From: Escherichia coli
GTDB taxonomy: Bacteria > Pseudomonadota > Gammaproteobacteria > Enterobacterales > Enterobacteriaceae
Assembly (NCBI RefSeq): GCF_003334305.1
Contig: NZ_QOWS01000019.1
Direction: 5' to 3' (one strand)
Length of the DNA stretch: 64,000 nt
The position numbers were made by a program. This document shows, piece by piece, positions 51,001 to 54,000 of this stretch. Position 1 is the stretch's first letter. Each line of letters opens with the position of its first letter.

Positions 51001-54000
51001 CTCCATGCGTCCGGCGCACCATTCCCAGCCTTCGGCTTCCCGAAGGTGTTCAGCGACAGCCTGGAGTTTTTCCAGCAGGGCAGCATCGAGCGCCACGCGG
51101 TCGACATAACCGTCCCCGTCATCGCTGAACAAATCAGTACGCAGTTCGTCAGGTGAGAAAGCATCAGCCCCCACGAAGCGGAATTTACTGTTCCCCGCCA
51201 CCGCCACTTCACTTTCCGTAATCAGATTGCGGATAACCCGCACATCCGGTTTTCCGCCCCATCCCGACTGACAGGCGGCTTCAAACACCTGTACCTGACG
51301 CGCGGTGTCGTTCTCCAGCGCCAGCGCCTGACAGTGTTCGGTAGTGATGCGGTCTTCTGCCAGCGCATCGAGGATGACAGGCGCAAGGTCAGCCAGTTTC
51401 AGCATTCGCTGGACATAGCGGGGTGAATAGCCCAGCAAATCACCGATTTGTGCAGGTGTTTTGCCTTCCTGCGCCATTGCGCGGAATCCGGCAATCTGTT
51501 CAGCAGGGTGCATATCCCGACGATGACCGTTTTCAGTCATTGATGCCGCCGTCGCCAGCTCCTGCGGAATGACCTTCACACGGACAGGCCAGTCAGCCGG
51601 AATGATGCCACGCTCTGCCAGCATGTTGAGTGCAGCCAGTCGGCGACCACCTGCGGCGACACCGTAACGGTCACCAGGCAGGGTATGCACGACCAGATTC
51701 TGCAACAGGCCAACGCCCTTAATGGACTCCGCCAGTTCGCTGACAGACTCCGCAGAATACGGCACCGTGCGCACATTCAGTGGTGATTTAATCAGTGAGG
51801 CCAGCGGCACGCTCACTTCCGCCGTCTGCGCCAGCAGGGCAGACAGGGCAGTCTCCTGCTCTTTTGACGGTTTACGGCTGGATTTACGCTCCGTTTTTGT
51901 CTTAGACTCTGTAACCGACATATATTTCTCCTTTGACCGGGATGGTTGTATGTCTGCCGGACGCATTCCCGTCCGGCACCTCTCTTACTTAAGAATGCCG
52001 AAATCACGGATGGCATGGTTCATCCAGTACCCGGCACCGTCCTCAAAATTCCAGGTACGCCAGACCATTGCACCGTTATTACGGACAACCAGGCGAAACT
52101 GTTCGCCGTGGTCATCCTCGATAAAGACGTTCCGGTACTGTGCGGCAACAGCTTCGGCATGTTTGCGGGTAAAAGGACCGTCAGGCAGCCCCTGAAGTAT
52201 TCTGAAATATTCGCTCATCCTCATCTCTCCGGTGATGCCCCGCACAGGACGGAGCGGTTGTCACAGTCAGTCGTTCAGAACGGGTATCATCTGAAAACCC
52301 GTAATCGTCACTCTCCGGCGGTTGCGGCTGCGACTCCGGCTGCGTGGCCTTACGTCCACGGCCTTTCGTTTTTGCGCCTCCTTTTTTCGTACCGGCCTCC
52401 GCCTGTGGTTCCGGCTGAGACTGACCGCTGAACTGTTGCCCCTCTTCCGGCTGAGTCTGAGCACCTGCGACACGTCCCAGCATCTGCATGGTGCCCGTGG
52501 TCTTAACAAGAATTTCGGTGACGTAACGGGTGATACCGTTATCCTCCCAGCTACGGGTGCGAAGCTGACCTTCGATGTAGACCTGCGCGCCCTTGCGCAG
52601 ATATTCACCTGCCACTTCCGCGAGCTTGCCGAACAGCACCACACGATGCCATTCTGTCTGCTCCCGCATCTCCCCCGTCTGTTTGTCACGCCAGCTTTCT
52701 GATGTGGCCACCTGCAGGTTTGCCACTGCGCCCCCGTTGGGGATGTAACGGACTTCCGGATCTTTTCCCAGGCGTCCTACGAGAATGACCTTGTTAATGC
52801 CACGAACTGCCATGATGTGTCTCCTTCTGTTGATGTTTTCAGCCCCATCATCTTTTGAGTTTCGGGAGCCGCGGTTTTGACGTTTTGCGGGGACCTGCCT
52901 TTTGTTCCCTCCGGTATTCACCATCACCTTTTTGAAAACCTTCGCCGCAAGGGGCATCACTGCCACGGCAGGAAACGACTGTCCGGGGGCAGACCGCAAA
53001 AGTTTTTGCCTGCTTTTGGGCAAAAAGTTTTGCGGGATGTGCATTTCACCCCTGGACTGGCGGAGACGGTTGTGGCTGTCTTTGCCCCCGGCGACAGGGG
53101 CTTAAACAGGTGAATGGCACCGGACATAACAACGGGCAGGGACCCGCCGCAACGACGTGAAGCGCGGTTTGCGAAACGGCGTTGCGCCTTACATCCCGGC
53201 GGCCTTTTGCCGGGATGCCAGGAGCGCAGGCCACGGCGCGACAGAGGCGCGCGACCGGAACAGTCGCTGCAAGCCAGGGGTTTTGCGTCAGGGATGGAAG
53301 CCCGCCAGGGCGGAGACAGCTCCGCTGGCTCCGTTCACGACAGCCCGCCCCGCCAGGGGGACGCCCGGAAAAGGCACAGGCAGAAGAAGAACAAGACAGA
53401 CAGTAATCAGAGCAGCAGAAAAAAGAAAAACAGTAGCAGTAGCAGGAACATCATCAGTAACAGACAAATGACAGATCTGAAAAGACAGAAGCCCACAGCA
53501 GAATTTCCGCGTAATGAAAGGGGCGGCGCGTGAGCGCGGCCCCTTTCAGCGCCACCGGCGCGCGGTCTTTTCCCGGCGCGGGCAGACGAGCATTTATCCT
53601 CCCGCCTGCCCGGAGTCTTCAGGCACGCAGACGAATAATCATCGTCGGGACATCGGTATAAGCAAATGTGCCGCGCGGCAGCTCCTCGCGGACGTCAGAA
53701 AACGGTAACAGCTTCTCCTGCTGGCGTGGCCCGTTGAGACAGACGGCGACCAGCACGCCACCCGGACGCAACAGGGAAAAGGCCCGCAGGATATGCCGGA
53801 TATCCTGCCCGTGGCTGAACGGCGGATTCATGATAACCCGGCTGTAATACTGCACCGGCTGCCATTCCATGAAGTCGCCACACTGAACCCTGACACCGTT
53901 AAAATTTTCCCGCAGATACCGGACCAGCCCGCTGTTGATTTCCACCGCATCACACATGGCTACCGGCGCGGTATCCCTAATCGCCCGCAGTATGGCCCCG

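Follow-up and report, generated by a model that had tools for sequence, protein, structure and literature searches.

The plasmid-borne ssb gene, which encodes a protein that binds single-stranded DNA (ssDNA), was analyzed in a stretch of 64,000 nucleotides (nt) of the Escherichia coli contig NZ_QOWS01000019.1 (assembly GCF_003334305.1); this stretch is referred to below as the window, and all coordinates are positions in it. We found that the gene has lost a single T near its 3΄ end, and that this deletion is a genuine allele, present in hundreds of independent plasmids and fixed throughout a ColV-type IncF virulence-plasmid lineage. It is probably a partial loss-of-function allele of a dispensable gene that is tolerated and became frequent by hitch-hiking with this lineage.

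Reading frame and recurrence of the deletion allele

The ssb open reading frame (ORF) lies on the minus strand, where AGGAG, a Shine-Dalgarno sequence, precedes the ATG at 52813, and it runs to a TGA at 52183-52181, encoding a product of 210 amino acids (Table 1). At the 3΄ end of the gene the minus strand reads GAT TAC GGG TTT TCA GAT GAT ACC CGT TCT GAA, and the product accordingly consists of 176 amino acids of SSB ending in ...DYGFSDD, followed by 34 out-of-frame residues. When a T is re-inserted after GATGATA, the reading frame yields a protein of 179 amino acids that ends in DYGFSDDIPF and a stop codon. We aligned the gene with the intact alleles of pPT62 (of the intact alleles in complete E. 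coli genomes, the one closest to it), F from strain EMG2, pARG01 and the metagenome contig L005, all of which carry the T, and observed a single gap column between 52285 (A) and 52284 (C), which corresponds to the T of the ATC Ile codon. These alignments bear out an earlier reading made from the sequence alone (the sequence-only reading), which had proposed a 3΄-terminal frameshift with loss of the ...DDIPF tip and had suggested a comparison with the ssb genes of other F-like plasmids. It had also described an extension of 34 codons that reaches the TGA at 52181 by crossing the start of a 77-amino-acid gene, and this extension does overlap that gene (yfjA, of the DUF905 family, 52218..51985) by 38 nt. 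The ancestral TGA at 52277-52275 is now out of frame. Beyond the T deletion, no further lesion was found in the 633-nt ssb ORF, and tblastn detected a single copy of ssb and no second one in the window, the rest of the plasmid not having been scanned.

Assemblies often contain spurious single-base indels, and among the rare frameshifted SSB variants of the protein database many occur once only and may be errors; the T might accordingly be present in the real plasmid. We searched for the deletion with an 81-nt query centred on it, for which an identity of ≥99% is attainable by an exact match only. Among 5,426 complete E. coli genomes, 125 of the 889 matching records carry the exact junction, as do 116 of the 998 PLSDB plasmids with a match, whereas the sampled rows of lower identity from the complete genomes all spanned 82 bases in the record, that is, the T was present. 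In these two collections ∼85–88% of matching plasmid ssb genes retain the T. The deletion allele was also found in 3 of 120 metagenome contigs (L043, L046 and L106) that had been collected with an anchor independent of the tail. At the protein level, the exact 210-amino-acid product is found on at least 1000 contigs under a ‘MULTISPECIES’ RefSeq name, and the exact repaired 179-amino-acid protein on 2 contigs.

The allele is present in both E. coli and Salmonella; among the plasmids that carry it are pECOS88/pS88, that of the type strain ATCC 11775 and numerous Salmonella plasmids of ∼146 kb from chicken. The sources of the carriers comprise human blood, urine, bile and stool, chicken, turkey, dog, cattle, pig and giant panda, as well as lake water, soil and sediment. 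The identical junction has been recorded by many laboratories, and from many hosts and countries. Moreover, the lost T is flanked by A and by CCC, and the CCC run is unaltered, which means that the deletion did not fall in a homopolymer. This context and the wide recurrence of the allele exclude a sequencing or assembly error, to which we assign a negligible probability. The sequence-only reading had left the choice between a genuine inactivating or modifying mutation and a homopolymer error; the former stands, whereas the latter is refuted, and its description of the site as a homopolymer is incorrect.

The annotation of the gene differs among records: the Prokaryotic Genome Annotation Pipeline (PGAP) and RefSeq flag ssb as a pseudogene (‘incomplete... 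missing C-terminus’), whereas submitter-annotated GenBank records give ‘single-stranded DNA-binding protein’. Relative to conserved homologues the frame is indeed disrupted, as in a pseudogene. Further degeneration of the kind expected of a decaying pseudogene was not seen, in that the Shine-Dalgarno sequence and the hairpin of the single-strand promoter Frpo2 upstream are both intact and the exact protein is conserved on at least 1000 contigs; the lineage is so uniform, however, that none of this can serve as evidence of selection.

Retained and lost features of the encoded protein

Judged by its OB fold, linker, locus and profile score, the gene is a member of the F-like plasmid SSB subfamily. 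The OB fold (residues 1–113) aligned end to end with solved SSBs, e.g. 7f2n, 1eqq and 1eyg, and the alignment to 7f2n showed conservation of Trp41, Trp55, His56, Phe61 and Trp89, which comprise the DNA-stacking aromatics and the tetramer-interface His. The score against NF010292, the profile of the plasmid SSB subfamily, was 374.4 bits (cut-off 265) with profile positions 1–174 of 175 matched, compared with 380.3 bits and 175/175 positions for the repaired 179-amino-acid protein. Pfam PF00436 is on record for the cluster of the frameshifted product. The disordered linker, which is rich in Pro, Gln and Gly (residues 114–170), is identical to that of the intact allele of L005.

One defining feature, however, is missing, namely that which makes SSB a recruitment hub. 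The C-terminal element SSB-Ct is an acidic tip that ends in Ile-Pro-Phe (IPF) with a free α-carboxylate, whereas the product encoded in the window continues from ...FSDD into 34 unrelated residues. SSB-interacting proteins grip the tip with a hydrophobic pocket that receives the terminal Phe, a basic lip that anchors the α-carboxylate, which is a key contact for the partners, and a basic ridge for the Asp residues (PMC10164576). When the terminal Phe or the last eight residues are deleted, binding in vitro is lost, and in the chromosomal gene such deletions are lethal (PMC10164576); a passage of PMC4872115, citing Antony et al. 2013, states that SSB with one tail per tetramer fails to complement. 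On the other hand, C-terminal fluorescent fusions of the F-plasmid protein SsbF still formed foci on ssDNA (PMC9849209). Because the complete OB fold and linker are kept, the 210-amino-acid product would be expected to coat ssDNA and form tetramers, yet it would probably be unable to dock host partners, because Ile-Pro-Phe-COOH, which is needed according to the biochemistry of E. coli SSB, is lost.

No homologues of the extension were found apart from other frameshift products. Its net charge is approximately –0.4, compared with –3.2 for the native last 10 residues. The stretch ...DEDERIF... inside the extension (52193-52213, minus strand) superficially resembles the acidic DDDIPF tip; it arises because the Shine-Dalgarno sequence and start region of yfjA are read in another frame. 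It is internal, with 7 residues following, and has no free carboxylate, and the resemblance is most likely a coincidence.

A functional tip could also be restored in a fraction of the products by recoding, either through ribosomal frameshifting or through transcriptional slippage. Right after the deletion, the –1 frame reads CCG TTC TGA (Pro-Phe-stop), and a –1 shift would generate a product ending in ...DDTPF or ...DDYPF. However, a TGA in the –1 frame lies directly upstream (AGA TGA TAC CCG), which confines such a shift to one codon, and GAT GAT ACC C does not contain an X-XXY-YYZ slippery heptamer. The RNA at the junction is without unusual structure (z = 0.13), and no long A or T run on which RNA polymerase might slip is found nearby. 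We inspected three frames and, in the absence of a slippery heptamer, a long homopolymer or an RNA structure, rejected programmed frameshifting and slippage; recoding as a whole is thus highly improbable.

Lesions of plasmid ssb and the spread of the allele

To survey lesions of plasmid ssb, we used 120 metagenome loci obtained via a 32-nt anchor in the OB-fold coding region, a procedure that is blind to the state of the tail. The finding that 114 of the 120 loci end in IPF contradicts the possibility, raised together with the sequence-only reading, that intact plasmid ssb genes normally lack this ending. Eighty-nine loci are full length, with a normal start and the IPF ending, and 11 are cut at the 5΄ end by the contig, ten of them ending in IPF and one (L046) carrying the deletion allele. 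Six lesions were located in the OB domain, comprising large deletions (L023 and L063) and 1-nt indels (L069, L084, L100 and L125). Those in the tail were the deletion allele (L043, L046 and L106) and two other frameshifts (L055 and L090). The comparison of 6 OB lesions with 3 independent tail lesions in 120 loci corresponds to approximately equal numbers per nucleotide and thus to no tail bias, with the reservation that many contigs are of low coverage and some singleton lesions may be errors. Other ssb lesions in databases and metagenomes include frameshifts in the A-runs of the linker, junctions that join PPEG to RITGFQ, and indels and deletions of the OB domain; tail-frameshift variants in the protein database other than the present one are rare, being found on one to a few contigs each.

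Recurrent decay of plasmid ssb is evident from these variants. The lesion pattern is that expected if a gene under weak selection decayed sporadically and a successful backbone raised one of its lesions to high frequency, and it argues against selection for tail loss.

Two further observations were made in the course of the survey. In L090, the frameshift in the linker A-run places ssb in frame with the downstream DUF905 gene, which creates an SSB–DUF905 fusion ORF of 275 amino acids. In addition, an insertion of ∼2.66 kb on the ssb strand, absent from the window, follows ssb codon 13 in 10 of the 120 loci: L021 (193-2905), L064, L074, L076, L079, L080, L095, L103, L123 and L126. This insertion is a group II intron, since it starts with the 5΄ consensus GTGCGCC and ends in a domain V/VI that matches Rfam RF00029 (65 bits). 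Ten loci that might have been taken for 5΄-truncated ssb genes carry it and were not counted as lesions. In several ssb haplotypes the intron is found at one and the same position, pointing to site-specific homing into plasmid ssb, and its splicing could leave ssb functional.

We then compared the haplotypes that surround the deletion. The 540-nt ssb coding sequence of L005, a human-associated metagenome contig, differs from that of the window in the presence of the T and at no other aligned position, an agreement far beyond chance, and an intact progenitor of the deletion allele is therefore known. From ssb, in the upstream direction, to 54736, L005 and the window differ at 0–1 positions, and they diverge just downstream of ssb. 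The plasmid pARG01 (NZ_CP049937.1), whose ssb is intact, shares its backbone with the window: there are 0 differences in 49900-51336 and 1 difference in 53476-56000, whereas 100 of 102 differences are in 51337-53475, a segment of ∼2.1 kb that covers the 5΄ end of herB, yfjA, ssb and Frpo2. On the strength of this distribution, 51337-53475 is clearly a homologous-recombination tract in the leading region. The deletion junction is also found with other downstream haplotypes (L043 and L106) and in chimeric or different ssb backgrounds (proteins P0004, P0005 and P0095); in P0005, P0095, L043 and L106 the junction, FSDD followed by TRS..., is combined with a different upstream linker and/or a different downstream intergenic haplotype. 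The leading region is accordingly a mosaic shaped by recombination, in which the T deletion either moved between backgrounds through short recombination tracts or recurred. Because pARG01 combines the same backbone with a different, intact ssb patch, repair by recombination with an intact allele is mechanistically possible, yet the deletion persists in the lineage.

According to the explanation that we favor, a single-base deletion would have arisen in the leading-region ssb of a ColV-type IncF virulence plasmid and become fixed in the lineage. Because the single-strand promoter hairpin still precedes the gene, the frameshifted ssb would, like its F homologue, undergo a burst of expression as the plasmid arrives in a new cell in the form of ssDNA. 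Its product, with the OB fold and linker kept, would retain the ability to form tetramers and to coat ssDNA, and without Ile-Pro-Phe-COOH it would not recruit χ, PriA, RecO, RecQ, RecG or ExoI, as predicted from the biochemistry of E. coli SSB. The allele would therefore add to the pool of ssDNA coat protein and not to the recruitment hub. Such a loss may be tolerated, the host supplying complete SSB and plasmid ssb being dispensable for transfer, and the allele would have reached its high frequency by riding a very successful plasmid backbone and not through an advantage of tail loss. As a side effect, ribosomes translating ssb would cross the yfjA Shine-Dalgarno sequence and start codon and terminate 35 nt into that gene, and the translation of yfjA may change. 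In F, deletion of ssb or of Frpo2 left conjugation efficiency unchanged and lengthened the time to the first plasmid duplication by ∼58% (PMC9849209), so plasmid ssb is accessory but not inert.

Several points weigh against this explanation. When ssb is deleted from pED208, the SOS response induced by mating increases (PMC8406263); ssb thus has some function, and a defective allele might be costly. The T deletion of the window occurs on several upstream and downstream haplotypes (P0004, P0005, P0095, L043 and L106), which could indicate spread by selection and not by drift. The carriers are near-identical and give no power for a test of purifying selection on the OB fold or of positive selection of the allele, and both the retained ssDNA binding and the lost partner binding are properties that we infer for the deletion allele.

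Alternatively, the loss of the tail might be adaptive, in which case a tip-less, coat-only SSB would be advantageous during plasmid entry and the allele would have been selected and spread by recombination. The incoming strand could then be covered without recruitment of RecO, RecQ, RecJ and ExoI, leading to less RecA loading and less SOS induction; alternatively, host partners would not be titrated, or defence systems that sense foreign SSBs with a canonical tip would be avoided. The allele is very common, is found on several flanking haplotypes and in chimeric ssb genes, and persists despite recombination patches that cover ssb on the same backbone. Furthermore, RecO loading depends on the SSB tip (PMC7913777), and activation of the DRT10 defence system requires a phage SSB-like protein whose tip reads FDDDIPF (bioRxiv 10.64898/2026.04.29.721553). 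However, in the tail-agnostic sample the tail is not hit more often than the OB domain when lesions are counted per nucleotide, the remaining tail-frameshift variants are all rare, and the great majority of plasmid ssb genes retain the T and the IPF ending. Hitch-hiking on a successful virulence plasmid accounts for the frequency without selection. We therefore consider adaptive tail loss unlikely, and slightly more so the specific proposal that a tip-less SSB dampens RecOR-dependent RecA loading and SOS, or escapes tip-triggered defence, and thereby contributes to the success of ColV-type plasmids.

Plasmid context, related systems and implications

The coordinates of ssb and of the neighboring features are listed in Table 1.

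Table 1. Features of the ssb locus and of the adjoining leading region, given as positions in the window
Feature	Position	Strand	Basis
Frameshifted plasmid ssb ORF, 210 codons + TGA	52181..52813	–	ORF call; NCBIfam NF010292 match
OB-fold domain, codons 1–113, intact	52475..52813	–	Alignment to solved SSB structures
Disordered linker and remaining acidic residues, codons 114–176, ending ...DYGFSDD	52286..52474	–	Identical to the intact allele of L005
1-nt deletion site (T of ATC Ile codon)	52284..52285	–	Alignments
34-codon out-of-frame extension	52184..52285	–	Translation
Ancestral ssb stop TGA, out of frame	52275..52277	–	Sequence and alignment
New ssb stop TGA, 35 nt inside yfjA	52181..52183	–	Sequence
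Frpo2-type single-strand promoter element upstream of ssb	52859..53177	+	DNA fold; function of F homologue, PMC9849209
yfjA / DUF905 gene, 77 amino acids (PGAP ‘DUF905 family protein’; yubL in pS88)	51985..52218	–	ORF and annotation
yfjB/herB, ParB-like gene, intact, same operon	49963..51921	–	ORF and annotation; PMC13370423
psiB, intact ORF	49474-49911	–	ORF
psiA, intact ORF	48758-49477	–	ORF

The window contains an IncFII RepA, SopA, SopB and, at its left end, a bacteriocin-export ATP-binding cassette transporter, together with a complete-looking tra operon that includes ORFs of the sizes of TraI (1756 amino acids) and TraD (720 amino acids). Its best matches are plasmids of ∼130–160 kb, e.g. 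pS88, which is a ColV plasmid (PMC3438092, PMC6918656). Backbone stretches of 3 kb and 24 kb are ≥99% identical in ∼103–113 plasmids of E. coli and Salmonella, the segment 40000-64000 of the window being shared by ∼113 PLSDB plasmids. The gene order is that of the F leading region: a methyltransferase gene, a repeat element, ssb, yfjA/DUF905, yfjB/herB (ParB-like), psiB, psiA and hok/sok. In F, the genes ssb, yfjA, yfjB, psiB and psiA are transiently expressed from the single-strand promoter Frpo2 on entry into the recipient (PMC9849209; PMC13370423).

We computed the folding energy of the plus strand from 52830 to 53180 as ssDNA and obtained a long hairpin of –93.9 kcal/mol (z = –7.9), with 0 of 100 shuffled sequences being as stable. 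Because the genes lie on the minus strand, we infer that the plus strand is the template and transferred strand. A repeat of ∼530 nt that includes the Frpo-type single-strand promoter occurs in three direct copies with 71–96% identity (47533-48066, 52924-53456 and 56183-56713), and the hairpin is that of the copy upstream of ssb. General decay of the leading region was considered for the window and rejected, as psiB, psiA, herB, yfjA and the methyltransferase gene are intact ORFs. The transcript of ssb from pS88 has been measured (PMC3438092), and the frameshifted ssb looks, as far as the sequence indicates, to be situated in a locus that is otherwise functional and expressed. In the plasmid of ATCC 11775 (NZ_CP033091.2; L002 5423-5857), psiB, which is intact in the window, is also flagged as a pseudogene with an internal stop; this is a strain-specific further decay of the SOS-inhibition module. 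Two RNAs were also detected in this part of the window with Rfam scores above the gathering score, namely the sok antitoxin RNA (RF01794, 92.7 bits) at 48480-48652 (–), adjoining a hok-type ORF, and the antisense RNA AS-pc01 (RF02875, 105 bits) at 55868-55969 (+) in the leading region.

The extension might alternatively have a regulatory role, in which read-through over the ribosome-binding site of yfjA alters the translation of yfjA by coupling or occlusion, an effect that would then be the consequence of importance to the plasmid. The Shine-Dalgarno sequence and first 12 codons of yfjA are now also translated in the ssb frame, so ribosomes that translate ssb traverse this Shine-Dalgarno sequence and the ATG, and the two genes are co-transcribed from Frpo2 in F (PMC9849209). 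However, no structure that sequesters the yfjA ribosome-binding site, and that read-through could open, was found. We regard such a role as improbable, more so than adaptive tail loss.

In comparison with known systems, the gene resembles that for the F-plasmid SSB (SsbF/Ssf; NF010292 / PRK13732) in having the same locus order (Frpo2, ssb, yfjA, yfjB(herB), psiB and psiA), the same OB fold and linker, and ∼97.6% DNA identity to the F copy over the ssb region including short flanks. It differs from those of F-like plasmid SSBs in that the terminal Ile-Pro-Phe is replaced by unrelated residues and in being called a pseudogene by PGAP. The product also resembles the laboratory E. coli variants SSB-ΔF, SSB-ΔC8 and SSB113 (P176S), in which the SSB-Ct docking element is removed or disrupted and the OB fold is intact; such tip mutants lose partner binding in vitro (PMC10164576). 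However, the laboratory mutants affect the essential chromosomal gene, were obtained by engineering or selection, and have a lethal or conditional phenotype, whereas the allele of the window is a natural one of an accessory plasmid copy, adds an extension instead of truncating the protein, and would be expressed transiently beside wild-type host SSB. With the C-terminal fusions SsbF-sfGFP, SsbF-mCherry, Ssb-Ypet and pED208 SSB-Strep it shares additional C-terminal residues and the lack of a free Phe carboxylate; such fusions still localise to ssDNA foci (PMC9849209; PMC8406263) but keep IPF internally, whereas the present allele has no IPF. It is also distinguished from the other sporadic lesions of plasmid ssb by its abundance, at least 1000 contigs as opposed to one to a few each.

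The sequence of the allele and an automated pseudogene flag are already in public databases, and we found no published description of the lesion itself: no prior account of the ssb frameshift of ColV plasmids or pS88 was found in the literature, and ssb is treated as a gene like any other in the paper on the pS88 transcriptome.

It is not yet settled why conjugative plasmids encode an SSB of their own. If the adaptive reading were true, the loss of the tail would have a share in the epidemic success of ColV-type plasmids in extraintestinal pathogenic E. coli (ExPEC), avian pathogenic E. coli (APEC) and poultry Salmonella; otherwise, the deletion would be a mutation of an ordinary sort, inactivating or modifying, in a gene that is dispensable. 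In either case, the allele may be considered a natural separation-of-function mutant, which has kept the OB fold and linker but not the tip that docks partners, and which is fixed in a virulence-plasmid lineage of global distribution with a complete transfer operon. It would therefore be useful for asking whether plasmid SSB is a recruitment hub or merely an extra coat for ssDNA.

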